Assembly (NCBI GenBank): GCA_018829565.1
Contig: JAHJTW010000142.1
Coordinates: forward strand, 1-51,207
Length of the DNA: 51,207 bases
Source of the DNA: a bacterium
GTDB lineage: Bacteria > Krumholzibacteriota > Krumholzibacteriia > LZORAL124-64-63
Direction of reading: 5' to 3'
Within the stretch, counting starts at the first letter, position 1, and the number at the start of each line of letters is the position of its first letter. Positions 1-18,725 of this stretch are shown here, piece after piece. The notes under the pieces are model-generated. The model was not told where the DNA came from, searched no databases, and saw only the letters and a program-made list of their open reading frames with translations. The position numbers and the translations under genes were made by a program.

Positions 1-1146
1 CCCGTAGTTCGTCACCGGGACCCCGGCCCGCCGGCACCGTTCCAGCCGGGTGCGCACCTCGCGGCGGTTGAGGGTGCAGCCCCCGCAGTGGATCACGAGG
101 TCGTACTCGGCCAGATCCGCAGGGAAGTCGTGGCCCTGGACGGTCGTGAACTCCAGGGGGGCGCCCACGTGGGCGGTCAACCAGCGGGGAATCTTCTCCC
201 GCCCGATGTCGTCCTCGACCGGGTGATGGGTGCAGGCCTCGGCCACCAGGACCCGGGCGCCCGGTCCGAGCCGGGCCGCCGCCGCAGCGCCCTCCGCCTG
301 CAGGCGCAGGTCACCGCGGAACCGGGCCATCAGGACCGAGAACCCGGTCAAGGGAACCGCGGCCGGCACCAGGGGAGCAACCTGGGCGAAGGCCTGGCTG
401 TCGGTCACCACCAGGGCCGGCGGTTCGCGCAACGAGGCGAGAGCCGACGCCAGACCGGTCTCCTTGACCACCAGGCAGGCCGCATCCCCGTCCAGCAGGT
501 CGCGGATGGCCTGGACCTGGGGCATGATCAGGCGGCCCACCGGCGCCTCCTCGTCAACGGGCACGACCAGGACGGCCGTCCCTCCTGCCGGCACCAGATC
601 GCGGACCAGGGGAGGCCCCGTCTCGCCTTCCGTCTGCAGGCCGGCGACGATCACCGCGCGGAGGTCGTCCAGCCCCGCGCCGGTCACGGCCGAGGTGGCC
701 ACGGCCGCGGCGCCGCACGCCCGCACCCGGTCCATCAGCTCGGCGGGCGCCGGGACCTGGTCGCTGCGGTTGAAGACCACCACCACCGGAACCCGGCGGC
801 CCTGCATCTCGGCCAGCATGCACCGTTCCTCGTCGCCCCAGCCGTCCGCCCCGGTCACCAGCAGGGCCAGATCCAGGCGGTCGAGCATCCGCCGCGTGCG
901 TTCGGCGCGCAGACCGCCGAGGTCGCCCACGTCGTCGAACCCCGCGGTGTCGATGAACACCACCGGCCCCACGGGCTGCAGCTCCATGGGCTTGGCCACC
1001 GGGTCGGTGGTCGTGCCGGGCGTCTCCGAGACGATGGCCACATCCTGGCGCACCAGGGCGTTCACCAGACTGCTCTTGCCGACGTTGCGCCGGCCGAGGA
1101 TCCCGATGTGGGCGCGGTCGCCCCGCAGGGCCGTGGCCTTTTTCAT
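1..1146 (-). CDS. hydF: [FeFe]-hydrogenase H-cluster maturation GTPase HydF (3' end runs off the window)
   Basis: Not in the ORF track; translated by hand from ATG 1146: MKKATALRGDRAHIGILGRRNVGKSSLVNAL (P-loop), DTAG, and FeS ligands EACTHH...IHCGGC...PVTNYG; directly follows hydG. Confidence 0.95.
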   Translation of the reverse strand, partial: MKKATALRGDRAHIGILGRRNVGKSSLVNALVRQDVAIVSETPGTTTDPVAKPMELQPVGPVVFIDTAGFDDVGDLGGLRAERTRRMLDRLDLALLVTGADGWGDEERCMLAEMQGRRVPVVVVFNRSDQVPAPAELMDRVRACGAAAVATSAVTGAGLDDLRAVIVAGLQTEGETGPPLVRDLVPAGGTAVLVVPVDEEAPVGRLIMPQVQAIRDLLDGDAACLVVKETGLASALASLREPPALVVTDSQAFAQVAPLVPAAVPLTGFSVLMARFRGDLRLQAEGAAAAARLGPGARVLVAEACTHHPVEDDIGREKIPRWLTAHVGAPLEFTTVQGHDFPADLAEYDLVIHCGGCTLNRREVRTRLERCRRAGVPVTNYG

Positions 1147-1174
1147 GACGTCCCTTTCGCCGGGGCCGCGGCCG

Positions 1175-2566
1175 TCAGCAGAACACGTCCCGGCGGCCCG
1201 AATGGACGGCGTCCAGCATGGCCTCGGCCCGTCGCCGGGGTTCGCCTTCCAGTTCGGCCAGGACCGCCCCGATGCGCTCCAGACCCTCCTTCAGGGTTTC
1301 CGGCGAGGCGTGATCCAGCAGGTACTCCAGGAAGCTGCTCAGTCCGTTGGGGTCGCAGTGGCGCTTGATCTCGCCCGGCTTCGCCAGGTCCATGAAGTCG
1401 GCGCCGGTGCGCCCCAGGCGATAGCAGCCGGTGCAGAACGAGGGGATGAAGCCCAGGGCCGCCACGTCCCGGACGACCTCGTCCAGGGGTCGGTGGTCGC
1501 CCAGGCTGAACTGCTCGGCCGCATGGGCCTCGGGATGGGCGTAGGCGCCCGGGCTGGTGCGGCTGCCTGCGGAAATCTGGGAGACGCCGAGGGCGAAGGT
1601 CTCCCGGCGGATGGCCGCCGATTCCCGGGTGGACATGATGATGCCCGTGTAAGGCACAGCCAGGCGCAGGATGGCCACGATGCGCCGGAAGTCGCGGTCG
1701 CCGACCGGATGGGGCGGATGGGCGGCCAGGGGCGAGCCCTCCGCCGGTTCCAGCCGCGGGACGCTGATGGTGTGGGGCCCCACGCCGAACCGCCGTTCCA
1801 GGTGGGCGACGTGCTGCAGCAGGGCCAGCAGCTCGAAGCGCCAGTCGGCCAGGCCGAACAGCACGCCCACCCCCACGTCGTCGACGCCGGCGGCGAAAGC
1901 CCGGTCCATGGCGCCCAGGCGCCAGTCGAAATCCATCTTGCGTCCGGCGCGATGGACAGCGTGATAGGTGTCGCGGTGGTAGGTCTCCTGGAAGATCTGG
2001 TAGGTGCCGATGCCGCGCTCCTTGAGCTGGCGGAACTGGTCGGTCTCCAGTGGCGCGACGTTGACGTTGACCCGCCGGATCTCCCCGCCCGGGCCCCGGA
2101 CCCCGTAGATGGTGTCGATGGCGTCCAGGACGTAGCCGAAGTCGTGACGGGGATAGGCCTCGCCCGCCACCAGCAGCACGCGCTTGTGACCCTCGGCCAC
2201 GAGGGCCGCCGTCTCCTCGGCGATTTCCCGCTGCGTCAGCGCCTTGCGCACCACCCCGCGGTTGCTGGACCGGAAGGCGCAGTAGGCGCAATCGTTGGCG
2301 CAGAGGTTCGAGACGTACAGGGGGGTGAACAGCACCAGGCGCTTGCCGTAGATGGTCTCCTTTACCGTGCGGGCAGCCGTGAAGATCTCCTCCAGCAGAT
2401 CGGGGTCCTCCACCCTGCCCAGGTCGGCGACTGCGGCGGCATCCAGGCCCTCCAGCTCCTGGGCTCGGGCCAGGATCCCGCGCACCCGCGATGCATCCGG
2501 CGCCGGGGCGCCGAGGGCCTCGGCGATGGAGGTCTCGTCGATCCTCGGTGCGGTCGACATGGTCAT
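1175..2566 (-). CDS. hydG: [FeFe]-hydrogenase maturation radical SAM protein HydG
   Basis: CANDCAYC radical-SAM motif, YQIFQETY, and C-terminal CTGC-x22-C auxiliary cluster motif (distinguishes it from ThiH). Start taken at the ATGA overlap with the upstream stop (2563-2566). Confidence 0.93.
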   Translation of the reverse strand: MTMSTAPRIDETSIAEALGAPAPDASRVRGILARAQELEGLDAAAVADLGRVEDPDLLEEIFTAARTVKETIYGKRLVLFTPLYVSNLCANDCAYCAFRSSNRGVVRKALTQREIAEETAALVAEGHKRVLLVAGEAYPRHDFGYVLDAIDTIYGVRGPGGEIRRVNVNVAPLETDQFRQLKERGIGTYQIFQETYHRDTYHAVHRAGRKMDFDWRLGAMDRAFAAGVDDVGVGVLFGLADWRFELLALLQHVAHLERRFGVGPHTISVPRLEPAEGSPLAAHPPHPVGDRDFRRIVAILRLAVPYTGIIMSTRESAAIRRETFALGVSQISAGSRTSPGAYAHPEAHAAEQFSLGDHRPLDEVVRDVAALGFIPSFCTGCYRLGRTGADFMDLAKPGEIKRHCDPNGLSSFLEYLLDHASPETLKEGLERIGAVLAELEGEPRRRAEAMLDAVHSGRRDVFC

Positions 2567-3723
2567 GGCGTGCCCCCCTCGGAGGCCGCCGTATCCCGGT
2601 CGAGCGTGACGGTGAAGGTCGTCCCCTCGTCGGGTGCGCTGGCCACGGTCACGTCTCCGCCGCAGAGCCGGGCCAGGCGGCGCACGATGCTCAGACCCAG
2701 GCCGCTGCCGCTGATGCCGCCGGTCTTCTCGTTCCTGATCCGGACGAACTCGCCGAACAGCCGCGCCGTCTCCTCGGGGCTCATCCCGATGCCCGTGTCG
2801 CTGACCGCGATCCCGAGACGGTCCGGCTCGCCCCCGTCGACCCGGACGGTGACGGTTCCAGCATCCCGGTTGTACTTCACGGCGTTGGACACCAGGTTGT
2901 TCAGGATGATCTCCAGTTCGCCGGCGTCGGCGTGCATCAGGGTGTCCCCGCGAAGGACGGTCTTCAGCTCGATGCCGCGGCGTTCGGCCTCCGGCGTGAA
3001 GGTCTCGATCACCCTGGCCACGACCACGGCCACATCGACCGCGCCGAGCTGCCTCTGCTTGGTCCCCGACTCGATGCGGGTCAGGTCGAGCAGGTCGAAG
3101 ATCAGCTTGCGCATGCCGCCGATGCGCTCCCGGCACCGCCCCACCACCGAGGCGGTCTTCTCGGGGTCCTGGGCCAGGATCCCGTCCTCCAGCAGCATCA
3201 GGTAACCCTCGACCGCCCCCAGCGGAGCCTTCAGCTCGTGGGCCAGGACCGAGAGGAACTCGAACCGGACCTGCCTCCGCTCCTTCGCCAGGCGGCGCGC
3301 TTCGCGGTCGGACACCACGTGCCGCGACGCCTTCTCCAGGACGTCCTCCAGCTCGTCGGGCGTGAACGGCTTGGCCAGGAAGTCGAAGGCGCCCTGCTTG
3401 GTGGCCCTCACCGCCATGTCCAGCGAGGCGTAAGCGGTGATCATGACCGTCAGGGGAGCGCCCTCGCGGCCGCGCAGGTCCTCCAGGATCTCCATGCCCA
3501 GCCGGCCCGGCATGGAGTGATCCAGCAGCAGGATGTCGAACCGCTCCTCGTCCAGCTTCCGGCGCGCCTCCTCGCCGTCGGCGGCCAGATCCACGGCGAA
3601 GGTGAAGTCGTCCCCGTAGCCCTCGACCGGGACCCTCATGCCGTCCAGGGCGCGGCGCACGCCCAGGCGGATGCCCGCCTCGTCGTCGGCGACCAGCACC
3701 CGCAGGACGTTGGGCTCAGACAT
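2563..3723 (-). CDS. Hybrid response-regulator receiver / sensor histidine kinase (REC-HisKA-HATPase)
   Basis: VLVADDE...LLLDHSMPG...KPF receiver; AHELKAPL H-box; NLVSNAVKYN, DTGIG, GSGLGL boxes. Confidence 0.92.
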   Translation of the reverse strand: MSEPNVLRVLVADDEAGIRLGVRRALDGMRVPVEGYGDDFTFAVDLAADGEEARRKLDEERFDILLLDHSMPGRLGMEILEDLRGREGAPLTVMITAYASLDMAVRATKQGAFDFLAKPFTPDELEDVLEKASRHVVSDREARRLAKERRQVRFEFLSVLAHELKAPLGAVEGYLMLLEDGILAQDPEKTASVVGRCRERIGGMRKLIFDLLDLTRIESGTKQRQLGAVDVAVVVARVIETFTPEAERRGIELKTVLRGDTLMHADAGELEIILNNLVSNAVKYNRDAGTVTVRVDGGEPDRLGIAVSDTGIGMSPEETARLFGEFVRIRNEKTGGISGSGLGLSIVRRLARLCGGDVTVASAPDEGTTFTVTLDRDTAASEGGTP

Positions 3724-4132
3724 GCCGGACCCCCAGGCGCTCGAGCTCGCGCTGGATCTGCTCGAAGCGCACGGGCTTGGCCAGCACCGCGTCGGCCTTG
3801 ATCCAGGCCTGCTGGCCGCGGTCGTCGCGCGAGAACTCCAGGCCGGTCTCGGCGGTCACCCCGGTGACCAGGAGCACGGGGATCGCAGGGTCGAGCTGCT
3901 TGATCCGGTAGGCGAGGGTGAAGCCCCCGTCCATCTGGTCCATCATCAGGTCGACCACCGCCAGATCGGGCAACCGCTCGGCCAGCCGCTCGCCGGCTTC
4001 TTTCTCGTTCCCGGCGGTGATCACGGTGTAGCCCTCGCGCTCGAAGCGCAGGGCGAGCTGGTCCAGGAAGTCCCGGTCGTCATCCACGAGCAGGACGCAC
4101 GGAGCGCCCTTGGGTTCAGGCGGGGTCGTCAT
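3716..4132 (-). CDS. Single-domain response regulator (receiver only)
   Basis: LLVDDD, DLAVVDLMM, LVTGV, AKPV; 138 aa with no output domain; overlaps both neighbours. Confidence 0.9.
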   Translation of the reverse strand: MTTPPEPKGAPCVLLVDDDRDFLDQLALRFEREGYTVITAGNEKEAGERLAERLPDLAVVDLMMDQMDGGFTLAYRIKQLDPAIPVLLVTGVTAETGLEFSRDDRGQQAWIKADAVLAKPVRFEQIQRELERLGVRHV

Positions 4133-6176
4133 GATTCCTCCCGTCGGGCCCGCCGCCGGGCAACGGGGGGTTCCCGTTGCGGGCCGGCAGCGTGATGGTG
4201 AAAGTCGTCCCGGTGGGGCCGCGCCCGGGATCGTGATTCGAGACGGCGGCGATGTCGCCCCGGTGCATCTTGACGATGCCGTAGCTGACGGCCAGGCCCA
4301 GCCCCGTGCCCTGGCCGTTGCGGCGGGTCGTGAAGAAGGGTTCGAACACCCGCGGCAGGACGTCAGGGGCGATACCCGGCCCGTTGTCCGCCACCGCGAT
4401 GGCGACCCGGTCGCTCCCCTGCGGCGCGCTCGTGATGGTGATGCGGGCCCCCGGGGAATCGCCCAGGGCAGCGACCGCGTTGTTCACCAGGTTGATCAGG
4501 ACCTGGCCCAGCTGGCCCGCATCGGCGGGGGCCTGCAGCCCGGGATCCTCGTGCCGGACCACCAGGGCCACGTTGGCCGGCATCACGCAGCCGCGCAGGG
4601 CGCCGTCGATCAGCTCGCCCATGGCCACCGGCTGCAGCTCCACCTTGTTCTGGCGGGCGAAGTCGAGCAGCCCGGCCACGATGGACTTGCAGCGGTCGGC
4701 CTGGTCGGCGATGAGGGAGAGCTCCTCGCGCAACCGGGCGTTGTCCCCGCACTCGCGCTGCAGCAGGTGCGCGTAGAGGATCACCACCCCCAGGGGATTG
4801 TTGACCTCGTGGGCGATGCCGGCCGCCAGCTGGCCCATGCTGGCCAGCCGTTCCGAATGCATGAGCTGCTCCTGGGTGCTGGCCAGCTCCTGGTGGGATT
4901 CGTGCAGCTGGTCCACGGTGCTGCGCAGCCGGTCGATGACGTAGGGCAGGCACATCTCGCTCTCGGCCATGCCCTTGAAGATCGCCACGGCGTGGGCCCG
5001 GCAGGTCTCGTAGCCGCAGGCCCGGCAGTTCAGCTCGTCCGTGTGGTCGAGCTTGCCCATGCGGGCCAGGATCTGGTCGATCTCGGGCTCGCTGGGCTCG
5101 CGCATCCGGCGATCGTCGGGCGCGAAGTTCCGGGCCAGGTCGAGATCGGCGCAGCGGTCCACCCAGATCTGCCAGTGCCCCGGATCGAATTCCCTCTGCC
5201 GCGACTTCACGTAGCGGCTGATGCGCGCGCGGCGGCGGAACATCGGCTCGGCGGTGGTCATGCCCGCCCCCATGATGCAGCCGTTGCAGCAGAGGATGTC
5301 CAGAAGTTCGGCGTCCAGGTCCCCGGCCTCGAACTCGCGGATCGCCTCGGGGAAGTACTGCCGGCCGTCCGCGCTGACCACGTGTCCGGTGGCGAGGTCC
5401 TCGCTCATGCCCGCCGCCTGCACCAGGCCCCGGGACAGGGGGAACACCGCGCCCAGTCCGGCGCGGGGGGCGTCGAAGGCCGCCGGCGGCGCCGTCCTTC
5501 CGTCCACGTCCAGGCGGGCGGCCAGCTTCCTGAGTTCGCGGAAGGTCAGGGCCGCCGCGACCTCGCCGTCGCCGTCCTGGCGCGCCGCCTCCCCCTTCTT
5601 GGCGATGCAGGGTCCAATGAACACCACCTTGAGGTCCCTGCCGAAGAGCCGGTGAAGGACCTTTGCGCTGGCGACCATGGGCGACACCAGCGGCAGGAGC
5701 GAGGCCGTCAGCTCGGGGTGGTAGTACTCGACGTAGGACACGATGGCCGGGCAGCTGGTGGAGACCCAGTGGCCGCCGGGGTGGTCCGCGAGGTGGGCCC
5801 GGGTCGCCGCCGCCACCAGGTCGGCGCCGAAACCGACCTCGTGCACCACGTCGAACCCCATGGCCCGCAGCATCCCCGCGAAGCGGTCCTCGCCCAGCTC
5901 GGGAAAATCGGCGGGGAACGAAGGGGCCACCGCCGCAGCCACCGGATCGGGGCCCGCCAGCAGCCGCTCGACCGCGTCCACCGAGTCGTAGACCAGCTTG
6001 GCGTCCTGGCTGCAGACCTCCACGCAGTTGCCGCAGCCGATGCAGCGCTCGTGGATGACCTGGGCCTGGCCGTCCGCGATGCGGATGGCCTTGGCCGGAC
6101 ACTCCCGCACGCAGGTGTAGCAGGTGCGGCAACGCTCTCCGATGGTCGTGACCAGGGCGATGCTTCCGGGCTCCAT
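4116..6176 (-). CDS. Putative sensory (group C-type) [FeFe]-hydrogenase fused to a histidine kinase
   Basis: N-terminal 2x[4Fe-4S] (CRTCYTCVRECP, CIGCGNCVEVC); divergent H-cluster motifs STSCP / GPCIAKKGE / DILCCNGCIMG; FeS domain CRACGYETC...C; then GIAHEVNNPL, NLVNNA, DNGPG, FEPFFTT, GTGLGL. Confidence 0.88.
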   Translation of the reverse strand: MEPGSIALVTTIGERCRTCYTCVRECPAKAIRIADGQAQVIHERCIGCGNCVEVCSQDAKLVYDSVDAVERLLAGPDPVAAAVAPSFPADFPELGEDRFAGMLRAMGFDVVHEVGFGADLVAAATRAHLADHPGGHWVSTSCPAIVSYVEYYHPELTASLLPLVSPMVASAKVLHRLFGRDLKVVFIGPCIAKKGEAARQDGDGEVAAALTFRELRKLAARLDVDGRTAPPAAFDAPRAGLGAVFPLSRGLVQAAGMSEDLATGHVVSADGRQYFPEAIREFEAGDLDAELLDILCCNGCIMGAGMTTAEPMFRRRARISRYVKSRQREFDPGHWQIWVDRCADLDLARNFAPDDRRMREPSEPEIDQILARMGKLDHTDELNCRACGYETCRAHAVAIFKGMAESEMCLPYVIDRLRSTVDQLHESHQELASTQEQLMHSERLASMGQLAAGIAHEVNNPLGVVILYAHLLQRECGDNARLREELSLIADQADRCKSIVAGLLDFARQNKVELQPVAMGELIDGALRGCVMPANVALVVRHEDPGLQAPADAGQLGQVLINLVNNAVAALGDSPGARITITSAPQGSDRVAIAVADNGPGIAPDVLPRVFEPFFTTRRNGQGTGLGLAVSYGIVKMHRGDIAAVSNHDPGRGPTGTTFTITLPARNGNPPLPGGGPDGRNHDDPA

Positions 6177-6179
6177 CGG

Positions 6180-7901
6180 CTACCTCAACGGGGTTCGCGC
6201 CTCGTAGTGCGTGTGCAGGAGTTCGTGGCTGAGTCCGGACAGCGGTTCGCCCAGGAAGTCGGCGTAGAGACTGCGGACGGCCGGGTTGGCGTGGGCGGTG
6301 CGGACGGTCTCGCCCTTGTCGATGCGGTAGAGGGCCCGCATGCGCGCGGTGATGGCCCCGGGCCTGGTCCCGATGGGCTGCCCGCCGCCGTTGATGCAGC
6401 CCCCCGGACAGGTCATCACCTCGACGAAGTGGATGTCTCGGCGGCCCTCCCGGATCTCATCGAGCAGTCTCCGGGCGTTGCCCAGCCCGCTGACCACGGC
6501 CACCCCCAGCTCCAGCTCGCCCACCTGGACCCGGGCCCGCTTGATCCCCTCCGGCCCACGCACCGGTTCGACCGTCAGGTCCTCCAGCTCGCGTCCGGTC
6601 ACCAGGAAGTGGGCCGTGCGGATGGCGGCCTCGGTGACTCCGCCCGAAGCCCCGAAGATCTTGCCGGCCCCCGACCGGCGGCCGAACGGCATGTCCGCCG
6701 GCTCGGGCGCCTGGTCACCGAGCTTCAGGCCGCGGCGACGCACCAGCTCGGCCAGTTCGCGGGTGGTCAGCACGGCGTCCACGTCCACCAGCCCCCCGCG
6801 CAGCATCTCCGACCGGCCGGCCTCGAACTTCTTGGCGGTGCAGGGCATGATCGAAACGCTGTAGATGCGCGCCGGATCGATCCCCTGGATCCCGGCGAAC
6901 CGGCTTTTGATGATGGCGCCCAGCATCTGCTGGGGGCTCTTGCAGGTGGACAGGTTGGGGATCAGGTCGGGGTAGAAGGTCTCGACGAACTTGATCCAGC
7001 CCGGCGAACAGCTCGTCATCAGCGGCAGGGGCCCGGCGCCCTGGAGGCGGGCCACCAGCTCGCTGGCTTCCTCCATCACCGTCAGGTCGGCGCTGAATGA
7101 GGTGTCGAACACCCGCGCGAAACCCAGCCGGCGCAGCAGGGCGTTCAGGGCGCCCTCCACGTCCCGGCCGGGCTTCTCGCCGAAGAGCTCGGCCAGGGAG
7201 ACCGAGATCGCCGGCGCCACCTGCACCACCGGCACCAGATCCGGATCCTGCAGGGCGGACTCGACCTGGTCGAGGTGCGAGCGCTCGGTCAAGGCCCCCG
7301 TGGGGCAGACCATCACGCACTGCCCGCAGTTGATGCAGCTGGAGATGTTCAGGCCCTCCCCGAAGGCGGTGTCGACCCGGGTCCCGCTGCCCCGGCCGGT
7401 GAAGTCGATGGCGGCGACGGTCTGGACCTCGGCGCAGGCGCGGATGCACCTGCCGCAGAGGATGCACTTGTCGGGGTCGCGGACGATGGCGGGGCTGGAG
7501 ATGTCCCGCGGCAGCCTGGTGCGCGAACCGGGCAGGCGGCGCTGCCGCACGCCCAGGTCTTCCGAAAGATCCTGCAACCGGCAGTTTCCGTGCTGGGCGC
7601 AGTAGAGACAGTCGTCGGGATGGTTGCTCAGCAGCAGCTCGACGATGGTCTTGCGCGCCCGCACCGCCCGCGGTGAATGGGTCTGGACCCTCATGCCCTC
7701 GGACACCGGGAACGAGCAGCTGGGCACCAGGTTGGGCGCCCCCTCGACCTCCACCACGCACAGGCGGCAGCTGCCCGTGGGCGGCAGACCTTCGTAGTGG
7801 CACAGGGTGGGCACCTGGATCCCGGCCCGGCGCAAGGCATCCAGCAAGGTCCCTCCCTCGCGCGCAGTGACCTGGCGGCCGTTGACCTCGATCATGGGCA
7901 T
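6180..7901 (-). CDS. hydA: [FeFe]-hydrogenase catalytic subunit, group A3-like (HydA/HndD)
   Basis: [2Fe-2S] domain, His-ligated cluster HPDDCLYC..C, 2x[4Fe-4S], H-cluster motifs TSCSPGW, MPCTAKKFE, EVMTCPGGCINGGGQP. Start ATG 7901 with GGAGG upstream (7895 is an alternative). Confidence 0.95.
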   Translation of the reverse strand: MPMIEVNGRQVTAREGGTLLDALRRAGIQVPTLCHYEGLPPTGSCRLCVVEVEGAPNLVPSCSFPVSEGMRVQTHSPRAVRARKTIVELLLSNHPDDCLYCAQHGNCRLQDLSEDLGVRQRRLPGSRTRLPRDISSPAIVRDPDKCILCGRCIRACAEVQTVAAIDFTGRGSGTRVDTAFGEGLNISSCINCGQCVMVCPTGALTERSHLDQVESALQDPDLVPVVQVAPAISVSLAELFGEKPGRDVEGALNALLRRLGFARVFDTSFSADLTVMEEASELVARLQGAGPLPLMTSCSPGWIKFVETFYPDLIPNLSTCKSPQQMLGAIIKSRFAGIQGIDPARIYSVSIMPCTAKKFEAGRSEMLRGGLVDVDAVLTTRELAELVRRRGLKLGDQAPEPADMPFGRRSGAGKIFGASGGVTEAAIRTAHFLVTGRELEDLTVEPVRGPEGIKRARVQVGELELGVAVVSGLGNARRLLDEIREGRRDIHFVEVMTCPGGCINGGGQPIGTRPGAITARMRALYRIDKGETVRTAHANPAVRSLYADFLGEPLSGLSHELLHTHYEARTPLR

Positions 7902-9811
7902 GTCTGCCTCCCCGCCCCGGTGGAGACCGCCCCGCGGCGGCAGGCCTCGAGGCACGAACCGCAGGCGATGCACACGGTCTGGTCGATGACGTGGGGCTCG
8001 CGCGGATCCCCGTGGATGGCATCCACCGGACAGACCCTGGCGCAGCGGGTGCAGCCGTTGCAGAGGGCCGGATCGATGGCGTAGGTCAGCAGCTCGGCGC
8101 AGACCCCGGCCGGGCAGCGGCGTTCGAAGATGTGGGCCTCGTACTCGTCGCGGAACCAGCGCAGGGTGCTCAGCACCGGGTTGGGCGCGGTCTGGCCCAG
8201 CCCGCACAGGGCGCTGTCCTTGATGACCCCGGCCAGTTCCTCCAGGTGCACCACGCCCTGGAAACGCTCAAGCGCCTGATGATCGTGCTCGCGGCGCGGA
8301 TGGCGGGTGATGCTCTGGAGGATCTCCAGCATGTGGCGCGTGCCCTCGCGGCAGGGGATGCACTTGCCGCAGCTCTCGCGCTGGATGAAGTCCATGAAGA
8401 ACTTCGCGACGTCCACCATGCAGTTGTCCTCGTCCATCACCACCAGCCCACCCGACCCCATCATGGCGCCCAGGGTCCTGATCGACTCGTAGTCGACAGG
8501 GACGTCCAGGCGGTCGGCGGGGATGCAGCCCCCGGAGGGCCCGCCGATCTGGACGGCCTTGAGCCTCTTGCCTCCGGGCGCGCCCCCGCCCACGTCCACG
8601 ATCACCGTCTGCAGGCTGGTGCCCATGGCCACCTCGACCAGGCCGGTGCGGCTCACCTTGCCCGACAGGGCGAACACCTTGGTGCCCTTGCTGCCGGCGG
8701 TGCCCAGGGCGGCGAAGGCCTCGGGCCCCCGTGCCACCAGTTCGGGCAGGTTGGCCAGGGTCTCGACGTTGTTGATCACCGTCGGCGCCCCGAACAGCCC
8801 CCTGGTGACCGGATAGGGCGGCCGCGGGCCCGGCATGCCCCGGCGCCCTTCGATGCTGGCGATCAGCGCGGTCTCCTCGCCGCAGACGAACGCCCCGGCG
8901 CCCTTCTTGAGGCGGATCTCCAGGTCCACCCCCGAACCCAGGACGTCGTGCCCCAGCAATCCCGCATGGCGCGCCTGCTCCAGGGCGTTGTCGAGGTGTC
9001 CGATGGCCAGGGGATACTCGGCCCTGATGTAGACGTAGGCCTTGGTCGCCCCGACGGCGTAGGCGGCGATCGCCATGCCCTCGACCAGACGATGCGGGTC
9101 GCCCTCGATCACGGCGCGGTCCATGAAGGCGCCCGGATCCCCCTCGTCGGCGTTGCAGATCAGGTACTTCTGCGTCGCCGGCGTTTCCAGGGCGAGGCGC
9201 CACTTGCGACCGGTGGGGAAGCCTCCGCCACCCCTGCCCCGCAGGCCGCTGCGCTCGACCAGTTCGCAGACTTCGCGCGGCTGCAGGGATCCGAGCACCG
9301 ACCGGAACGCCGCGTAGCCGCCCCGGGCCAGGTATTCGTCCAGGCTCCGCGGATCGATCAGTCCGCAGTTCTTGAGCACCCAGCGGGTCTGGGGGGCGAA
9401 GAAGGGATGGTCCCCGATGGCGGGAACCCCGTCCCAGGGGGTGTGGTCCTCGGCGGGGAACTGGAAGAGCGGCAGTTCGGGCCAGGCCCCGCCGCCCAGC
9501 ACCGAGGCGAGGATGGCCTCCGCCTTGTCCGGATCCACGTCGCCGAAGCAGAGGCGGGCCCTGCCCGGAAGCTGGACGTCCAGCAGGGGTTCGGACGCGC
9601 ACAAGCCGATGCAGCCCACCTCGACGACGTCCAGGTCCCAGCCCCGTTCCCCGGCGAGTTCCTTGACCCGCGCGAGGGTGCGGCCCGCCCCGGCGCCCAG
9701 ACCGCAGGTCCCGGTGCCCACCAGGACCACCGGACGCACCACGGTGTCGCGGCGCAGACGCCTGATCGCCGCGGGATCCCCGGCCGGCGTGAAGGAGATC
9801 GGCCCGATCAT
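7892..9811 (-). CDS. hydB: NuoF-like diaphorase subunit of multimeric [FeFe]-hydrogenase (HydB/HndC)
   Basis: GLRGRGGGGFPTG, CNADEGDPGAFMDR, GAGAFVCGEETAL, GGPSGG, ESCGKCIPCREG, C-terminal 2x[4Fe-4S]; start at ATGA overlap 9808-9811. Confidence 0.93.
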   Translation of the reverse strand: MIGPISFTPAGDPAAIRRLRRDTVVRPVVLVGTGTCGLGAGAGRTLARVKELAGERGWDLDVVEVGCIGLCASEPLLDVQLPGRARLCFGDVDPDKAEAILASVLGGGAWPELPLFQFPAEDHTPWDGVPAIGDHPFFAPQTRWVLKNCGLIDPRSLDEYLARGGYAAFRSVLGSLQPREVCELVERSGLRGRGGGGFPTGRKWRLALETPATQKYLICNADEGDPGAFMDRAVIEGDPHRLVEGMAIAAYAVGATKAYVYIRAEYPLAIGHLDNALEQARHAGLLGHDVLGSGVDLEIRLKKGAGAFVCGEETALIASIEGRRGMPGPRPPYPVTRGLFGAPTVINNVETLANLPELVARGPEAFAALGTAGSKGTKVFALSGKVSRTGLVEVAMGTSLQTVIVDVGGGAPGGKRLKAVQIGGPSGGCIPADRLDVPVDYESIRTLGAMMGSGGLVVMDEDNCMVDVAKFFMDFIQRESCGKCIPCREGTRHMLEILQSITRHPRREHDHQALERFQGVVHLEELAGVIKDSALCGLGQTAPNPVLSTLRWFRDEYEAHIFERRCPAGVCAELLTYAIDPALCNGCTRCARVCPVDAIHGDPREPHVIDQTVCIACGSCLEACRRGAVSTGAGRQTCP

Positions 9812-10278
9812 GCGACGGCCCCCTCCCTCCGGTAGCGGCGAAGGATCTCCACCACCGACTCGGGCGTGACCTCCCCGTGCACCTGGCCGTTGACCGCCAC
9901 CAGGGGGGCCAACCCGCATGCGCCCAGGCAGGAAACGACCTCGAGGCTGAACAGGCCGTCCCGCGAGGTCTCGCCATCCTCGATCTTCAGGGTGCGCTTG
10001 ATGGCGGCGAAAACGCCCAGGGAACCCTTCACGTGGCACGCCGTCCCCCGGCACACCTGGACGTGGTAGCGGCCAAGAGGCTGGAACCGGAACTGGTTGT
10101 AGAAGGTCGCCACTCCGTAGATCCTGCTGGCCGGCAGGTCGAGGTGGGTCCCCAGCTCGGCCACCGCCGCGCGGGAGATGTAGCCCTCGGCTTCCTGGAC
10201 TTCCTGGAGCAGAGGGATGAGGGCGTCGCGCCCGGCCCCGGGATGCGCGGCAAGGATGTCGGGCACCGTCCTGTTCAC
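9808..10278 (-). CDS. hydC: NuoE-like [2Fe-2S] subunit (HydC/HndA)
   Basis: YGVATFYNQF, CRGTAC...CLGAC; GTG start overlaps the rex stop (GTGA 10275-10278). Confidence 0.92.
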   Translation of the reverse strand: MNRTVPDILAAHPGAGRDALIPLLQEVQEAEGYISRAAVAELGTHLDLPASRIYGVATFYNQFRFQPLGRYHVQVCRGTACHVKGSLGVFAAIKRTLKIEDGETSRDGLFSLEVVSCLGACGLAPLVAVNGQVHGEVTPESVVEILRRYRREGAVA

Positions 10279-10925
10279 ACCTTCACTCCCTTGCCGCAGC
10301 AACCGAAGAAAGCCGCCCGCACCAGGGAGATCCCGATGTCGGTGTCCTCGACGTAGATCCCTTCAGGGACGTGCAGGCGGTTGGGGGTGAAGTTCAGGAT
10401 GCTGCGCACACCTGCCGACACCAGCCGATCGGCCCCGTTCTGGGCCTCGTTCTCCGGCACCGCCAGGATGGCCATGCGGATGTCCTGGTCCCGCACGGTG
10501 GCCTCGAGTTCACCCAATCCCAGGATGGGGATCCCGTGCAGCCGGCTGCCCACCAGGAAGATGTCCGATTCGAAGGCGGCGACCAGTTCCATCCGGGGGT
10601 GATTGCGCTGGAAGAACTGCAGGATGGCCCGGCCCAGGTTCCCCGTTCCGATGAGGATGACCCGCGCCTCGTCCGCCACTCCGACCTTCTCGTGGATCGC
10701 CTCGGCCAGCTTGTCCACCTCGTACCCGTGCTGGGCGCTGCCCTGGTAGCCGATGCCCATGATGTCCTGGCGGACCTGGGACGGGGTCACCCCCGCACTC
10801 CAGGCCAGTTCCCGCGAGTAGACCCAGCCCACGCCGCGCGCCCCCAGATCCTGCAGGAAACGCAAATAGAGGCACAACCTGCCGATGACCCTGGGGCTCG
10901 TTCCCGTCGCGTTTCTCGTCCTCAC
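10275..10925 (-). CDS. rex: Redox-sensing transcriptional repressor Rex
   Basis: RLCLYLR...SRELA...QVRQD...HGYEV winged helix; GTGNLGRA Rossmann motif; ILNFTP. GTG 10925 has a GGGGAGGG RBS; the ORF-track ATG at 10964 lies inside a Rex-like box and lacks an RBS. Confidence 0.9.
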   Translation of the reverse strand: MRTRNATGTSPRVIGRLCLYLRFLQDLGARGVGWVYSRELAWSAGVTPSQVRQDIMGIGYQGSAQHGYEVDKLAEAIHEKVGVADEARVILIGTGNLGRAILQFFQRNHPRMELVAAFESDIFLVGSRLHGIPILGLGELEATVRDQDIRMAILAVPENEAQNGADRLVSAGVRSILNFTPNRLHVPEGIYVEDTDIGISLVRAAFFGCCGKGVKV

Positions 10926-10953
10926 CTCGACCCTCCCCGTTCGGGACCTAACG

Positions 10954-10971
10954 TTGTCAAACATTTAACAT
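10954..10971. promoter_or_regulatory. Rex-like operator 1 (TTGTCAA-ACAT-TTAACAT)
   Basis: 18-bp imperfect palindrome fitting the TTGTGAA-N4-TTCACAA Rex pattern, just upstream of rex. Confidence 0.75.
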
Positions 10972-11022
10972 ATGGGCGATATGCGGAAATTTATGAAGGA
11001 GTGTGGGATGGTCAAGGAAAAA

Positions 11023-11040
11023 ATGTTAATTATTTGACAA
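11023..11040. promoter_or_regulatory. Rex-like operator 2 (ATGTTAA-TTAT-TTGACAA)
   Basis: Its reverse complement matches operator 1 at 16/18 positions; the two boxes flank a candidate minus-strand TTGACC-N16-TAAATT promoter (11015-10988). Confidence 0.75.
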
Positions 11041-11190
11041 TTCTGGCTCGTGGTGATTCCCGCGAATCGGCCGATAACGGAGCAATCTTGAGGATGTGAT
11101 TTAAGTTATTTTCTTTAAATAATTTAAGACAATTGATCCGGTCAATCTCCTCCTCGACCCAGGGGGACATCCGGCGGTCCGTCCCGACGC

Positions 11191-11217
11191 AAAGGCCCCC
11201 GCGCCTGCAGGGGCCTT
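11191..11217 (-). terminator. Possible terminator hairpin after the BNR/VPS10 gene
   Basis: AAGGCCCC...GGGGCCTT 8-bp stem; only a short U run. Confidence 0.4.
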
Positions 11218-11243
11218 GCCGTTCCAGCCTCCGGTGCCGCGTG

Positions 11244-14200
11244 CTACTCCCGGCTCTTGAATTCCTCCTCCGTGAGCACCGGGACCGGAGCCAGGCCCGC
11301 CTCCGCCAGGCGGGCGTTCAGGCCGTCCAGCCGGGCCCCGGCCAGTTCGCCGAACCGCCGGTCGGCGTCTTCGATGTCCCTGCGGAACACCTCCAGGCGA
11401 TCCACCTGGGATTTCGTCGGCCGTCCTCCGAAGCCGCTCACCGCGGCGTACAGCCGGACGACGTTCTCCCGCAATCGCCGCTGCCCGCTGATGCCCTGCA
11501 CTTCCCCGGTCACCACCAGATCGCCGTGCAGGACGTCGAGTTCGTCCGCGAGACCGCGCAGATCGGCGGCCAGGGCCTCGCCCGCCGCCGGGTCATCCGC
11601 CCGGGCCACCACGGAGTCCCTCGCCGAGGTGACCGCGTCCGCGACGTAGGCCAGGCGGGCCAGCATGCCGTAGAGCTCCTGGACGATGCGCTGCTGCTCG
11701 GCGCGGTCGGCGCGGGAGTGCGGGTAATCCTCGTCGTAGGTCACCGCGACCGTGCCCTCGTGGACCTCCTTGCCCTTGGTCAGCCGGTAGGCGTACACCC
11801 CCTCGGGAGCGGCGGGACCCACCGCGCCGGCGTACGAGGTCGCCGGATCGAGGGTCGGCGACGGGGCCACCTTGGGCGGCTTGAGACGCGGGGACCAGCT
11901 GACGATGTTCAGCCCCTTGCGCTTGCTGCCGGGCAGGACCTTGAGCAGTTCGCCTTCGGGAGTGAAGATCTCGAGCTTCATCTCGCCGAACATGTGCCGC
12001 TTCTTCAGGTAGTAGACCATCCGGGCGGACCGGTCGGGATTGCCGGCGATGTAGTAACCGTCCCCGGGCGAGAAGGACTTCCACACGGGGGTGCTCAGCA
12101 CCGCCGGACTGGACTCCAGGATCGCCACCTCGGCGTCCAGCACCGGGGCGGTGATCTGGCGCAGGGGCGAAAGGTCGTCCAGGACCCAGACACCCCGGCC
12201 GTGGGTGCCGATCACCAGGGATCCCGTGCGCTCCTGGAAGACCAGGTCGTTGACGGGAACCGGCGGGAACTCCTCCTCGAAACGGGCCCAGTGGCGGCCC
12301 CGGTCCAGGGTGACGTACAGGCCGTGCTCGGTGCCCAGGAACAGCAGGTCCGGGTTCACCGGATCCTGGCGGATCACGTGCGCGTAGCCGGCGAGGTCGC
12401 CGGTGGCCAAGGCCTCCCAGGTGTCTCCGCCGTCACCGGTCGCGAACACGTAGGTCGCCATGTCGCCGGTCCGGTGGCCGTCGCAGGTGACGAAGGCCTC
12501 CTGGTCATCGAACCGCGAGGGTTCCACGCAGCTGATCCAGGTGGCGGGGGGCAGCCCCGGCAACCGACCGCTCAGCTCGGTGAACCGGCGGCCGCCGTCG
12601 GTGGTCAGCTGCAGGTTGCCGTCGTCGGTCCCCACCCAGATCACGTCCGGGTCCAGGGTCGAGGGCCCGATGGTGAAGATCGTGCAGTGATTCTCGGCGG
12701 TGGTGTTGTCGATGGTCAGGCCGCCCGACTCCTCCTGCCGCAGCTTCTGCGGGTCGTCGGTGGTCAAGTCGCCCGACAGCCGCTCCCAGGACTCGCCCCG
12801 GTCACGGCTGACGTGCAGGAACTGGGATCCGGTGAACAGCCGCGCGCGCTTGCCGCCCGTGGTCACCACCGGGGTGTTCCAGTTCCAGCGGAACTCGGGT
12901 TCGCCGGCGCCGGGCAGGGGCTTGACGTCCTTGCTCTCCCCGGTGCGCAGGTCCATGCGGTTGAGGTTGCCGCCCTGCCACTCCCAGTACACCAGGTCCG
13001 GGTCGGTCCGGTCGATGGCCACGGCGAAACCGTCGCCCCCGCCCAGGTTCTCCCAGTCGCCGTTCTCGATGCCGCTTGGCGAACGCGAGGGGGCGTACCA
13101 GCTGCCGTTGTCCTGCAGGCCCCCGTAGATGCGGTAGGGTCGGCGGTCGTCCACCGCGACCCGGTAGAACTGGGACACCGGGAGGTTGGCCGCGTGCATC
13201 CAGCCGTCCCCGCGGTTGTAGGTGGTGTACACCCCACCGTCGTTGCCGGCGATCATGTGGGTCGGATCATCCGGATCGATCCACAGGGCGTGCTGGTCCA
13301 CGTGCATCCAGCCGCCGAGGCCGCCGAAGGTCTTGCCACCGTCCCGGGTGACCAGGAGCGGTTGGCTGGTCTTGTAGCAACGGTCGGGATCCCGGGGATC
13401 GGGGATCAGCAGATGGAAGTAGAAGGGCCGGCCCTTGATACCCTCCTGGGTGTTGACCTTCTCCCAGGCGGCGCCGGCGTCGTCGCTGCGGTAGAAGGCC
13501 GACTCGGCCGACTCCACCGCCGCATAAATGCGGTCGGGATCCGCCGGGCTGACCGCGATGGCGATGCGGCCCAGCTCACCCTCGGGCAACCCTTGGCGCA
13601 GCTCGGTCCAGGTGGTCCCGCCGTCGGCGCTCTTGTAGAGGCCGCTGCCCGGGCCGCCGGAGCGGAAGGTGTAGGGCAGCCGCCGGAAGTCCCACATCGC
13701 CGCGTACAGCACGGCCGGATCCCGCGGATCCATGGCGATGTCGCTGCAGCCGGTGTTCCCGTCGATGAAGAGGATCCTTTCCCAGGTCGCCCCGGAATCC
13801 GTGGTCCGGTACAGGCCGCGCTGGTCGTTCGCGTTCCACAGGTGGCCCAGCACCGCGACGTAGACCGTGGCCGGATCCGTGGGATGGATGATGATCTCGG
13901 CGATGCGCTCGCTGTCCTGCAGCCCCATCCGGGTCCAGGTGTCGCCGCCGTCGGTGGTCCGGTACACCCCGTCGCCCACCGAGACGCTGTTGCGCACCCA
14001 GACCTCGCCCGTGCCCACCCAGACGGTGTCGGGGCGCGCCTGGTCGATGGTGATCGCCCCGATGGACTGGTTGTGCTTGTCGAAGACCGGCTTGAAGGTG
14101 ACCCCGCCGTTGCGGCTCCTCCAGACGCCGCCCGATGCGGCGCCCACGTAGATGGTCTTGCCGCCCCCGTGCACGGCGTCGAGAGCGGCGATGCGGCCGC

Positions 14201-14360
14201 TCATGACGGCGGGCCCGATTTCCCGGGCCCGCAGATCGCCGAAGACGTGGCTGCCGATCTCGATGCCGGCGGTGGAGTTTTCCCCGCCGGCCCGGGCCGC
14301 ATCCGGCCCCGTCGCCAGGGCCAGCAGGCCCAGGCACGTCCAGAGAATCCTGTTCAGCAT
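11244..14360 (-). CDS. Secreted BNR/Asp-box beta-propeller protein (VPS10/sortilin-like, often annotated glycosyl hydrolase)
   Basis: Signal peptide MLNRILWTCLGLLALA; REIGPAVMSGRI; many Asp-boxes (SRNGGVTF, TTDGGDTW, SADGGTTW, SRDRGESW); GTHGRG; helical C-terminus. Confidence 0.85.
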   Translation of the reverse strand: MLNRILWTCLGLLALATGPDAARAGGENSTAGIEIGSHVFGDLRAREIGPAVMSGRIAALDAVHGGGKTIYVGAASGGVWRSRNGGVTFKPVFDKHNQSIGAITIDQARPDTVWVGTGEVWVRNSVSVGDGVYRTTDGGDTWTRMGLQDSERIAEIIIHPTDPATVYVAVLGHLWNANDQRGLYRTTDSGATWERILFIDGNTGCSDIAMDPRDPAVLYAAMWDFRRLPYTFRSGGPGSGLYKSADGGTTWTELRQGLPEGELGRIAIAVSPADPDRIYAAVESAESAFYRSDDAGAAWEKVNTQEGIKGRPFYFHLLIPDPRDPDRCYKTSQPLLVTRDGGKTFGGLGGWMHVDQHALWIDPDDPTHMIAGNDGGVYTTYNRGDGWMHAANLPVSQFYRVAVDDRRPYRIYGGLQDNGSWYAPSRSPSGIENGDWENLGGGDGFAVAIDRTDPDLVYWEWQGGNLNRMDLRTGESKDVKPLPGAGEPEFRWNWNTPVVTTGGKRARLFTGSQFLHVSRDRGESWERLSGDLTTDDPQKLRQEESGGLTIDNTTAENHCTIFTIGPSTLDPDVIWVGTDDGNLQLTTDGGRRFTELSGRLPGLPPATWISCVEPSRFDDQEAFVTCDGHRTGDMATYVFATGDGGDTWEALATGDLAGYAHVIRQDPVNPDLLFLGTEHGLYVTLDRGRHWARFEEEFPPVPVNDLVFQERTGSLVIGTHGRGVWVLDDLSPLRQITAPVLDAEVAILESSPAVLSTPVWKSFSPGDGYYIAGNPDRSARMVYYLKKRHMFGEMKLEIFTPEGELLKVLPGSKRKGLNIVSWSPRLKPPKVAPSPTLDPATSYAGAVGPAAPEGVYAYRLTKGKEVHEGTVAVTYDEDYPHSRADRAEQQRIVQELYGMLARLAYVADAVTSARDSVVARADDPAAGEALAADLRGLADELDVLHGDLVVTGEVQGISGQRRLRENVVRLYAAVSGFGGRPTKSQVDRLEVFRRDIEDADRRFGELAGARLDGLNARLAEAGLAPVPVLTEEEFKSRE

Positions 14361-14407
14361 GGTTCCCCCATACGGCAGGGGCCGCGTGGCCCGTCCCGGC
14401 TGTGATG

Positions 14408-15166
14408 CTACTCGGTCTTGGCGGCGGGGGCGGGCATCGCGAACTGGTCGTCGGCGATCTCCACCCCGTACTCCACCGTTTCCATCATCATCTGCATCAT
14501 GGTCACGCCGTTGCTCTTGGTCTCGACGGCGAAGGGCATGACGATCCCGTCCACTTCCTGGTAGTCGCTCATGTAGCTGTCCTGCTCGACCACGGTCTCG
14601 TCGATGGTGATGGTCGAGTGGCTCTTGATGGGCAGGTAGTATTCCTTGTCGATGAACATGTCCACGATGATGTCCAGCTTGGTGTCGATGCGGAGCTTGT
14701 GGCACGGGGTGCCCTCGACGTCCTCCTCGCCCAGGTACTCGACGGTGTAGCCCTTGTCCTTGTAGCCCACCAGGGCGCCGTCCATGTCCGCCTGCAGGGA
14801 AAAGCCCTTGTTGGTGACCTCGTCCATGGGCTGGGGATCCATGGATCCCATCATGGGGTTGATGGACCAGCCCTGCTCGCCGTCGTAACCCTGGGTCATG
14901 GTCATGCCCATGACCTGGGCCTCGATGCGCAGCTTGTCGGGCCGTTTCTGGAACATCGTGAAGGGGATCTCCATCCCCTGGGCCATGACCTTGCCGGTGA
15001 TCTTCGCCGACGTCTTGCCCTTGATGGCCTTCTCGCCGCCGCTGGCCTCGATGCTCTTCTTGATGAGTTCGTCGGCGTCCATGGCCGCAGCCGTCACGGC
15101 CACACCCAGCATCAGCAACAGGGCGCCGAGGGTCACGAGGGTCGAAATCCGGATCGTCTTCTTCAC
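14408..15166 (-). CDS. Exported protein, outer-membrane lipoprotein-sorting (LolA-like) family
   Basis: Signal peptide; ADELIKKSIEASGG...KRPDKLRIE...GYDGEQGW...SDYQEVDGIVMPF pattern. Confidence 0.65.
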   Translation of the reverse strand: MKKTIRISTLVTLGALLLMLGVAVTAAAMDADELIKKSIEASGGEKAIKGKTSAKITGKVMAQGMEIPFTMFQKRPDKLRIEAQVMGMTMTQGYDGEQGWSINPMMGSMDPQPMDEVTNKGFSLQADMDGALVGYKDKGYTVEYLGEEDVEGTPCHKLRIDTKLDIIVDMFIDKEYYLPIKSHSTITIDETVVEQDSYMSDYQEVDGIVMPFAVETKSNGVTMMQMMMETVEYGVEIADDQFAMPAPAAKTE

Positions 15167-17530: not shown

Positions 17531-17599
17531 CCCCGATTCCCCTCTACTTTGATGCGCCGGTTCCCGGTCGCGCTCCAGACATCTACCCGGTGGTCCGCC

Positions 17600-17956: not shown

Positions 17957-18004
17957 CTCAGGCCCTCCCCCGTAGGATCATCATGGCCAACGAGGGGGGA
18001 GACC

Positions 18005-18667: not shown

Positions 18668-18673
18668 CGAATC

Positions 18674-18701: not shown

Positions 18702-18725
18702 TGCTGCCGCTGGTCCCTCCGATCC

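Follow-up and report, generated by a model that had tools for sequence, protein, structure and literature searches.

A hydrogenase-type sensor fused to a histidine kinase, and its receiver partners, in a Krumholzibacteriia-like [FeFe]-hydrogenase operon: a putative H2- or redox-sensing cascade

What does a hydrogenase-like protein fused to a histidine kinase report on, and where does its signal go? The question was raised by the contig JAHJTW010000142.1 of GenBank assembly GCA_018829565.1, a stretch of 51,207 nucleotides (nt) from a Krumholzibacteriia-like bacterium, here called the window. Its first 11 kb displayed, on the minus strand, the compact gene string rex–hydC–hydB–hydA–sensor kinase–lone receiver–receiver-kinase–hydG–hydF, in which a cassette of three signalling genes stood between the genes of an [FeFe]-hydrogenase and those of its maturases. 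The initial annotation had read this cassette as an H2-sensing phosphorelay without an output regulator. The present analysis pointed to a kinase cascade, probably sensing H2 or redox state and acting on a final target encoded elsewhere, and the cassette was resolved into the following features:

4116..6176, minus strand: sensor kinase, 686 amino acids (aa), identified from Pfam domains, motifs, alignment and structure model
6000-6140, minus strand: 2x[4Fe-4S] part of the sensor (Fer4 dicluster, residues 13-59)
5265-5945, minus strand: H-domain of the sensor (Fe_hyd_lg_C, residues 78-304, E 5.5e-39, 134.7 bits, cut-off 22.1)
4944-5033, minus strand: Cx2Cx4Cx16C cluster of the sensor (FeS, PF04060, residues 382-411)
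4875-4949, minus strand: connecting helix of the sensor
4650-4838, minus strand: HisKA of the sensor with H456 (residues 447-509, 55.6 bits, above cut-off)
4179-4523, minus strand: HATPase_c of the sensor (residues 552-666, 90.1 bits, above cut-off)
3716..4132, minus strand: lone (single-domain) receiver, 138 aa (PF00072, E 6e-17), with D17/D18, phospho-acceptor D61, T90 and K119
2563..3723, minus strand: receiver-kinase, 386 aa, with Pfam domains REC (D68) at 3337-3699, HisKA (H162) at 3064-3261 and HATPase_c at 2596-2928

The chain of overlapping genes described in the initial annotation was present: the sensor stop overlapped the lone-receiver start by 17 nt, the lone receiver overlapped the receiver-kinase gene by 8 nt, and the receiver-kinase stop overlapped the hydG start by 4 nt (ATGA); the gap from the hydA end to the sensor start was 3 nt. 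The same order recurred in related loci, and the arrangement was therefore far beyond chance.

The sensor module and its junction with the kinase

The sequence comparison was applied to relatives of the sensor, of which 295 were found in species-level genomes; the best 80 loci were examined, and the nine proteins of the window were mapped onto them by tblastn. These 80 loci bore at least 12 phylum labels (including Krumholzibacteriota, Planctomycetota, Acidobacteriota, Myxococcota and Hydrogenedentota), and all but one were labelled metagenome-assembled genomes (MAGs). The sensor alignment was composed of the window protein and 69 relatives (n = 70), with 11 of the 80 loci left out on account of a best tblastn segment below 85% of the query (contig ends or frameshifted assemblies).

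The three motifs first quoted for the protein were all found, namely VSTSCPAIV at residue 138, GPCIAKKGE at residue 188 and DILCCNGC at residue 293. The H-cluster cysteines C142, C190, C297 and C300 were kept in 70/70 sequences, as were K193 and E196. Numbering of the clostridial enzyme CpI was transferred via the window HydA, which numbered one less than CpI at the three cluster motifs and had E, E, R and S at the E279, E282, R286 and S319 sites; the CpI residue assignments themselves, which we take to be correct, were consistent with the PDB titles of CpI variants and with PMC8163306. On this numbering, the residue preceding C142 (C299 site) was T, S or A and never C; the M353 site was G in all 70 sequences and the M497 site L in 69; and the E279/E282/R286/S319 sites were, in the joint alignment, Y/T, L, variable and A/L in the sensors but canonical in all 50 neighbouring HydA proteins. 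Pocket residues A230, P231, S323, P324, K358 and E361 (CpI numbering) were kept throughout, and Q325 was M throughout. Among the accessory clusters, C384, C387 and C409 of the C-terminal cluster were kept in 70/70 and C392 in 69/70, and the eight Fer4 cysteines in 69/70, the remaining row being a gap. Identity between the sensor and its own HydA was 30% over 284 columns.

The initial view of the H-domain as sensory (group C/D-like) and not catalytic was thus upheld by cluster cysteines kept in every sequence together with the absence of the proton-transfer residues that HydA retains. At the level of homology, the assignment of the 686-aa protein to the HydS-type (group C-like) sensory modules is near certain from the sequences: it had the four-cysteine H-domain, the loss of the proton pathway, the M353/M497 replacement, and both N- and C-terminal clusters that mark group C. 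Kinase-bearing proteins are assigned in PMC11406978 both to C1 (with HATPase_c) and to C3 (with His_kinase_dom).

Pfam and the structure model agreed on a 686-aa protein with 2x[4Fe-4S], H-domain, FeS domain and kinase and without a PAS domain, as the initial annotation had it. Pfam gave no PAS domain in the sensor, and residues 410-509 were all-helical in the AlphaFold2 model, which was built on 42 sequences (mean predicted local distance difference test score, pLDDT, 84.3; blocks mostly >90 up to residue 430). In this model a helix (410-434) began right after C409, residues 434-450 were of low confidence, the DHp helices spanned 444-475 (bearing H456) and 480-509, and residues 515-664 formed the ATP-binding domain. 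The C-terminal PAS domain that defines M2f proteins was absent; because no PAS family was matched in Pfam and only helices led from C409 into the kinase core, the sensor was regarded as a kinase-fused variant and not as an M2f protein.

The kinase displayed the H, N, G1, F and G2 boxes of class I (HisKA) histidine kinases, all intact: H456 within the H-box AHEVNNPL was kept in 70/70, and N562/N566, D597-G599-G601, F615 and G621-G627 (N, G1, F and G2 boxes, respectively) were invariant in 42 sequences. Foldseek aligned the N-terminal part of the sensor, over 410-470 columns, with the solved [FeFe]-hydrogenases 8zqd (E 8e-21), DdHydAB, 7p8n (TmHydABC) and CpI, and the C-terminal part with ZraS and LOV-kinase chimeras (LOV-HK). 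The kinase core matched the ZraS core 9jfj with an E of 2.9e-33 and was nearest to AtoS, ZraS and FixL types, every score lying below the cut-offs of those families; the core of the receiver-kinase resembled PhoR/PnpS/WalK.

One related locus, L016, harbored both sensor types in one cluster: (i) a kinase-fused sensor (9977-12046) before hydCBA and (ii) a PAS-type HydS (17519-19372; Fe_hyd_lg_C, FeS and PAS_8) after hydA, with a gene for a SpoIIE/PP2C phosphatase behind this HydS gene. The window sensor was 36% identical to this PAS-type HydS (E 6e-83) over residues 8-427, a stretch that takes in the final cysteine of the C-terminal cluster and the opening turns of the helix behind it. Since the likeness ended at residue 427, the kinase occupied the exact place of the classical PAS domain.

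Receiver partners across related loci

A receiver-kinase match lay directly 3' of the sensor in 75/75 loci having at least 1300 nt downstream: 72 were single full-length open reading frames (ORFs) of 339-413 aa, those of L039 and L060 were fragmented, and that of L016 comprised the receiver part only. The reading frames of sensor and receiver-kinase often overlapped or nearly abutted in these loci. Residues D14, D68, K118 and H162 of the receiver-kinase were kept in 73/73 sequences and T96 in 72/73. Where 2 kb or more preceded the sensor (74 loci), its direct upstream neighbour was hydA in 49 and rex in 10; where each flank measured 6 kb or more (47 loci), hydA or hydG was present in 46 (the exception being L076) and rex in 30.

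The lone receiver was found between sensor and receiver-kinase in 44/77 loci, whereas in 4/77 it closely preceded the sensor. Its D17, D18, D61 and K119 were kept in 49/49 sequences, and T90 was T in 47 and S in 2. It was present in 45/47 loci with hydA abutting the sensor versus 0/24 others. On a quick tree of the 70 sensors, the lone-receiver and hydA-adjacency traits changed 6 and 7 times, respectively; among six independent pairs, five changed in the same direction, none in the opposite one, and one showed no difference (sign test p 0.0625, the best reachable with these pairs). The tie of the lone receiver to hydABC adjacency, corrected for the tree, is accordingly suggestive and not significant. 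A divergent lone receiver (32-35% identical) lay immediately before hydC in L024, L049, L080, L082 and L065.

Pfam detected no HPt family in the three cassette proteins. The phosphorelay of the initial annotation does not hold in the strict sense, because an HPt was lacking and the second histidine sat within a full HisKA plus HATPase_c kinase; the arrangement was read instead as a kinase-to-receiver-kinase cascade.

Operon control and the search for an output regulator

The remaining features of the operon were as follows:

10954..11040, minus strand: operon promoter region, two Rex-box-like palindromes (11023-11040 and 10954-10971) flanking a sigma-70-like site
10275..10964, minus strand: rex, redox (NADH/NAD+)-sensing repressor (Pfam Put_DNA-bind_N and CoA_binding; NF003995, 183.1 bits, cut-off 126)
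9808..10302, minus strand: hydC, NuoE-like [2Fe-2S] subunit (PF01257, E 2.6e-50; NuoE and HoxE models)
7892..9811, minus strand: hydB, NuoF-like flavin/FeS subunit (Complex1_51K, NADH_4Fe-4S, Fer4)
6180..7901, minus strand: hydA, catalytic [FeFe]-hydrogenase subunit, HydABC-type (A3-like) (NF040763, 778.4 bits against a cut-off of 765)
1175..2566, minus strand: hydG, radical SAM maturase of the H-cluster (TIGR03955, 488.1 bits, cut-off 312)
1..1146, minus strand: hydF, maturase GTPase, incomplete at the contig end (HydF_dimer, HydF_tetramer, MMR_HSR1)

The start of rex is more likely the GTG at 10925, preceded by the putative ribosome-binding site GGGGAGGG. The ATG of hydB followed immediately on the hydC stop, and HydB scored 457 bits with the NuoF family, under its cut-off of 558.65. 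Among solved structures, HydA came closest to the HydA1 subunits of two bifurcating HydABC enzymes, 8a6t (E 2e-168) and 7q4v. The genome bin carrying the window (4.39 Mb in 354 contigs, about 70% G+C) contained two Fe_hyd_lg_C matches in all, HydA and the sensor.

The first H-cluster motif of HydA (6996-7019, residues 295-302) read MTSCSPGW and not the textbook TSCCP. By the numbering that we take to apply, the Ser of TSCSP falls at a cluster-ligand position. A degenerate HydA was considered on account of this motif and rejected: TSCSP was found in 44 and TSCCP in 6 of the 50 neighbouring HydA proteins, and the solved HydA1 chain 7q4v_A also reads TSCSPGW, so TSCSP was taken as a normal variant.

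The region upstream of rex was AT-rich and held, at 11015 to 10988, the one sigma-70-like promoter (TTGACC, 16 nt, TAAATT) that a simple scan found in window positions 1-11400. The two Rex-like boxes around it, identified with a Rex consensus that we take to be the standard one, had three mismatches each; such matches were expected 0.32 times in the whole window, and 2 of 100 shuffles reached two. Rex boxes stood upstream of rex in 25/37 related loci. A simple scan gave no terminator-like sites on the minus strand of the operon stretch. Upstream of the Rex boxes, at 11080-11145, CTTAAAT occurred in two copies whose starts were 26 nt apart, and the first of these belonged to the near-palindrome CTTAAATTATTTAAAG; this region may be a further protein-binding site. 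The next gene upstream (11244-14705, minus strand) encoded a 1153-aa BNR/Sortilin-Vps10 repeat protein and had a hairpin at its end, immediately ahead of the AT-rich promoter.

The absence of a DNA-binding domain, claimed in the initial annotation, held for the three-gene cassette and not for the operon, which began with the gene of the DNA-binding repressor Rex. An output regulator was sought among all further receiver-domain matches within the loci (tblastn, E <=1e-4), long ones being passed through Pfam. A DNA-binding response regulator lay within 10 kb in just 6-7 of the 80 loci: L016, L036, L041, L046, L047 and L068, plus a broken copy in L060. The lack of an adjacent DNA-binding regulator first seen in the window was therefore family-wide. 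The few nearby regulators were of the NtrC type (REC, Sigma54_activat, HTH_8) and divergent from hydC, the type being called by Pfam for L016, L047 and L068 and, for the rest, from 59-73% identity to the L047 protein; the other further receiver matches were hybrid kinases or lone receivers. The regulators examined by Pfam were located as follows:

L047:3592-5019, minus strand: NtrC-type regulator (promoter at about 5522-5538)
L016:8252-9682, minus strand: NtrC-type regulator
L068:1107-2630, minus strand: NtrC-type regulator

A sigma-54-type element, TGGCACG-N4-TTTGCT or close to it, lay upstream of hydC in exactly the regulator-bearing loci L036, L041, L046, L047, L060 and L068, and upstream of the sensor in L016. 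A planctomycete (Thermoguttaceae-labelled) clade had a hydCBA–sensor operon without rex, with a sigma-54-type promoter and a divergent NtrC-type regulator in front. The receiver of the receiver-kinase was 42% identical to that of an NtrC-type regulator. Two further gene types adjoined these regulators: (i) a 100-aa ORF directly upstream of the one in L047 (5012-5314, minus strand), with an H-box-like AHKINNHL and no ATP-binding domain, which may be either a free-standing DHp-like protein or a kinase remnant, and (ii) proteins of about 555 aa behind the regulators of L047 (1748-3415, minus strand) and L016 (6189-7865, minus strand), with an unusual pairing of receiver and GCV_H domains. The genome of the window itself contained 29 matches to PF00158 and about 20 sigma-54 activators.

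The nearest public relative of the window was the Krumholzibacteriia MAG L003, with a sensor 95% identical. There hydF was complete (417 aa), and the next gene was a convergent hydE (TIGR03956, 343 bits, cut-off 254.6). Past hydF and hydE, at L003:17474-21602, lay [NiFe] group 3-like hydrogenase genes (Fer4_22, FAD/NAD-binding subunit, Oxidored_q6, NiFeSe_Hases). A regulator just past the contig end was ruled out in L003, in which this convergent hydE and the [NiFe] group 3-like genes came after hydF.

Traces of the locus were present in one sediment metatranscriptome (X1), where 5% of the sampled words occurred and short contigs of about 98-99% identity covered 3056-3212, 4140-4287 and 10657-10884 (window positions 1-11300), alongside many partial matches at 90-95% from other organisms. 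The X1 contigs do not show co-transcription, DNA can occur in such libraries, and runs X2-X4 gave next to nothing.

Proposed cascade, rival explanations and known systems

The composite explanation that we consider probable runs as follows. The H-cluster of the sensor would be installed by HydG and HydF, predicted to be co-transcribed, and by HydE; for want of a proton pathway its reaction with H2 would be slow, and its redox state would thus report the H2 level. Electrons would distribute themselves over the accessory clusters, among them the C-terminal Cx2Cx4Cx16C [4Fe-4S] cluster, whose last ligand C409 stands in the model where the helix leading to the DHp helix with H456 begins. The cluster state would set autophosphorylation at H456. 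The phosphoryl group would pass to D68 of the invariably adjacent receiver-kinase, switching its own kinase (H162), and would also pass to, or be drained by, D61 of the lone receiver as a branch or a sink. The receiver-kinase would then act from H162 on a target outside the cassette, for which the NtrC-type regulator of the planctomycete clade is a candidate. Given the single sigma-70-type promoter flanked by two Rex boxes, hydrogenase expression would be influenced by an H2 input, by way of the cascade, as well as by an NADH input, by way of Rex. The initially proposed path from H2 through kinase to both receivers, with a target elsewhere, hence stands as regards intact kinase and receiver sites and the family-wide lack of an adjacent regulator, and falls as regards a strict phosphorelay. 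Its suggestion of a control of maturation drew no support: nothing in the analysis pointed there. In Rex the operon evidently possesses its own controller of transcription.

Several points weigh against this cascade. The loading of the 2Fe subcluster, the H2 response and all phosphotransfer steps are what we infer. Alignment of the single L1 cysteine of the sensor was ambiguous, MAFFT placing it at the C300 position and BLASTP, with a gap, at the C299 position (the cysteine of HydA TSCSP); in either alignment the L1 motif of the sensor had one cysteine only. In L016 the kinase-fused sensor was succeeded by a receiver domain only. The lone receiver was missing from 29/77 loci and was therefore not counted as essential to the core. 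Mean column conservation was 0.67 for both receivers (39 rows, the window plus 38 loci with all three genes), a measure that cannot tell the direct partner. A sigma-54 promoter was not found upstream of rex, and the window in total had 12 matches against 16.8 expected. The L068 regulator adjoined its own Cache-HAMP kinase, which makes the NtrC-type regulator only a candidate output of the hydrogenase sensor, and the genome of the window had no clear orthologue of the L047 regulator, several matches being equal at 40-44% identity (best 44%).

The sensor could also report the general redox state and not H2 specifically; within the cascade, H2 sensing was put at about even, or slightly better. 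Carried to its end, this gives an explanation in which the Fe-S chain reports the reduction state of ferredoxin or of HydABC and the H-domain is a relic that need not react with H2. It is consistent with the missing proton pathway, with three accessory clusters in the protein and with an operon shared with Rex, itself a redox sensor, and the authors of PMC11406978 doubted H-cluster binding in Hydrogenedentota group C1 proteins. Invariance or near-invariance in the 70 sequences of the H-cluster cysteines and of the pocket A230, P231, S323, P324, K358, E361 and F417 (CpI numbering) is, however, hard to explain without a 2Fe subcluster; linkage to hydG/hydF or hydA was near-constant (46/47 loci), and the characterised TmHydS and TamHydS bind an H-cluster and react with H2 (PMC8163306). 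A general redox sensor with a relic H-domain was held to be unlikely, if well worth keeping in mind.

Two further explanations concern the partners. Control may act at the protein level, without transcriptional output: the phosphorylated lone receiver would be the terminal element, docking on HydABC or a maturase to adjust activity or assembly; the sensor would serve the complex as a regulatory 'T' subunit, and Rex alone would handle transcription. If so, this would be a direct protein-level H2 feedback on the bifurcating hydrogenase. The 73-74 of 80 loci without a DNA-binding regulator, the tracking of hydABC adjacency by the lone receiver (45/47 versus 0/24) with agreement of all five informative pairs on the tree, the divergent lone receivers directly before hydC in five loci, and the name BfuT, 'T subunit', given to the sensor in the Hydrogenedentota survey (PMC11406978) all fit such a control; yet adjacency may just be shared operon history, the sign test was unable to reach 0.05 with these pairs, and more than a third of the loci (29/77) did without a lone receiver, and we give this explanation a small chance. 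A slighter one still falls to two separate systems sharing the operon, with the sensor paired to the lone receiver or to a distant regulator and the receiver-kinase driven by a different kinase. The two kinase cores were indeed of different sub-types (AtoS/ZraS/FixL versus PhoR/PnpS/WalK), and hybrid kinases lay near the cassette in L004, L005, L009 and L079. The receiver-kinase nonetheless followed the sensor in 75/75 loci, drawn from 12 or more phylum labels, the two frames frequently overlapping or almost touching, and its NtrC-like receiver fits an NtrB-like sensor kinase.

The cascade was further compared with known systems. It would share its general logic with HoxBC–HoxJ–HoxA, from a slow sensor-type hydrogenase through a histidine kinase to hydrogenase expression. 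HoxBC–HoxJ–HoxA divides sensor and kinase between different proteins and has a known NtrC-type DNA-binding regulator as its output. The metal site and fold are unrelated to those of the window system, which displayed a fused sensor-kinase and a second kinase tier. HydDB lists [NiFe] group 2b as 'histidine kinase-linked' (PMC5037454, Table 1, row 2b). With LvrA/LvrB of Leptospira, whose biological setting is unrelated, the likeness was one of domain order: the receiver-kinase had the LvrB order of REC followed by HisKA–HATPase, without other input, as a second tier behind a kinase. The kinase core of the sensor matched the LvrB model NF047466 (122.7 bits against a cut-off of 500) and PDB 8vc9, and it was not counted as a member of the LvrB family because the score was far below the cut-off.

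The characterised relatives TmHydS and TamHydS lack the C299 pathway, have changes at M353 and M497 (G/S in TmHydS and S/L in TamHydS, PMC8163306) and carry Cx2Cx4Cx16C; both are proposed sensors, a role that rests on spectroscopy and gene context, and the parts of the two papers drawn on here did not mention a signalling output (PMC8163306, PMC10055695). TmHydS (Thermotoga maritima, group C/M2f) and the window sensor shared 2x[4Fe-4S], the missing C299 pathway, G in place of M353, Cx2Cx4Cx16C and a position beside a bifurcating hydrogenase (PMC8163306, PMC10055695), but TmHydS has a C-terminal PAS and S at the M497 site, whereas the window protein had a HisKA/HATPase kinase and L; this comparison was made against the published description, with the 36% identical PAS-type HydS of L016 as stand-in for sequence. 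TamHydS (Thermoanaerobacter mathranii, group D/M2e) differs in having no kinase fusion, S at the M353 site and an adjoining AraC-type regulator, no AraC-type neighbour being present in the window.

Kinase-fused group C proteins were already on record in genome surveys. HydDB describes C1 as 'histidine kinase-linked (putative)' (PMC5037454, Table 1); a group C hydrogenase fused to a HATPase domain was described from Elusimicrobia lineage V, with Rex nearby and with a stated relation to proteins of Ignavibacterium album and Caldithrix abyssi (10.1101/765248); and PMC11406978 reported (i) 53 Hydrogenedentota C1 proteins with HATPase_c, 21 of them adjoining A3 genes, and (ii) proteins named 'BfuT', assigned to C3 and bearing a histidine kinase domain, from sub-type V clusters whose organisation is that of Caldithrix abyssi DSM 13497. 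Three loci related to the window (L037, L072 and L076) bore Hydrogenedentota labels. In the Cell 2024 survey, PAS fusion remains the defining feature of group C (PMC11216029). The surveyed kinase-fused proteins agreed with the window in a hydrogenase-type sensor joined to a kinase, beside a trimeric A3 hydrogenase and with Rex around; they differed in that the P1-P3 motifs were hardly found in the C1 proteins of PMC11406978, whereas all four cysteines were invariant in the window family. The survey texts, as far as drawn on here, made no mention of a receiver-kinase, a lone receiver or a functional test; neither a receiver-kinase partner nor a signalling test was found in the literature searched, and the supplementary figures of PMC11406978 and 10.1101/765248 may show neighbour genes.

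The novelty implied in the initial annotation therefore falls away, a kinase-fused group C protein beside a trimeric group A hydrogenase with Rex nearby having already appeared in those surveys, and the sensor cassette is a further case of a catalogued, widespread class and not a new kind. The additions of this analysis are the invariance of the ligands, the C409–kinase junction, the constant receiver-kinase, the tie of the lone receiver to hydABC, and the two alternative operon heads (Rex boxes, or NtrC-type regulator plus sigma-54). To a family found in 295 species-level genomes, the window adds one member, from an uncultured Krumholzibacteriia-like genome. For the proposed H2 sensing and signal transfer by group C, the kinase fusion makes the signal easy to read, as autophosphorylation and as phosphotransfer to a defined pair of receivers, with the invariant cluster ligands, the C409 that caps the helix into the kinase, and the constant receiver-kinase partner as handles for such tests.

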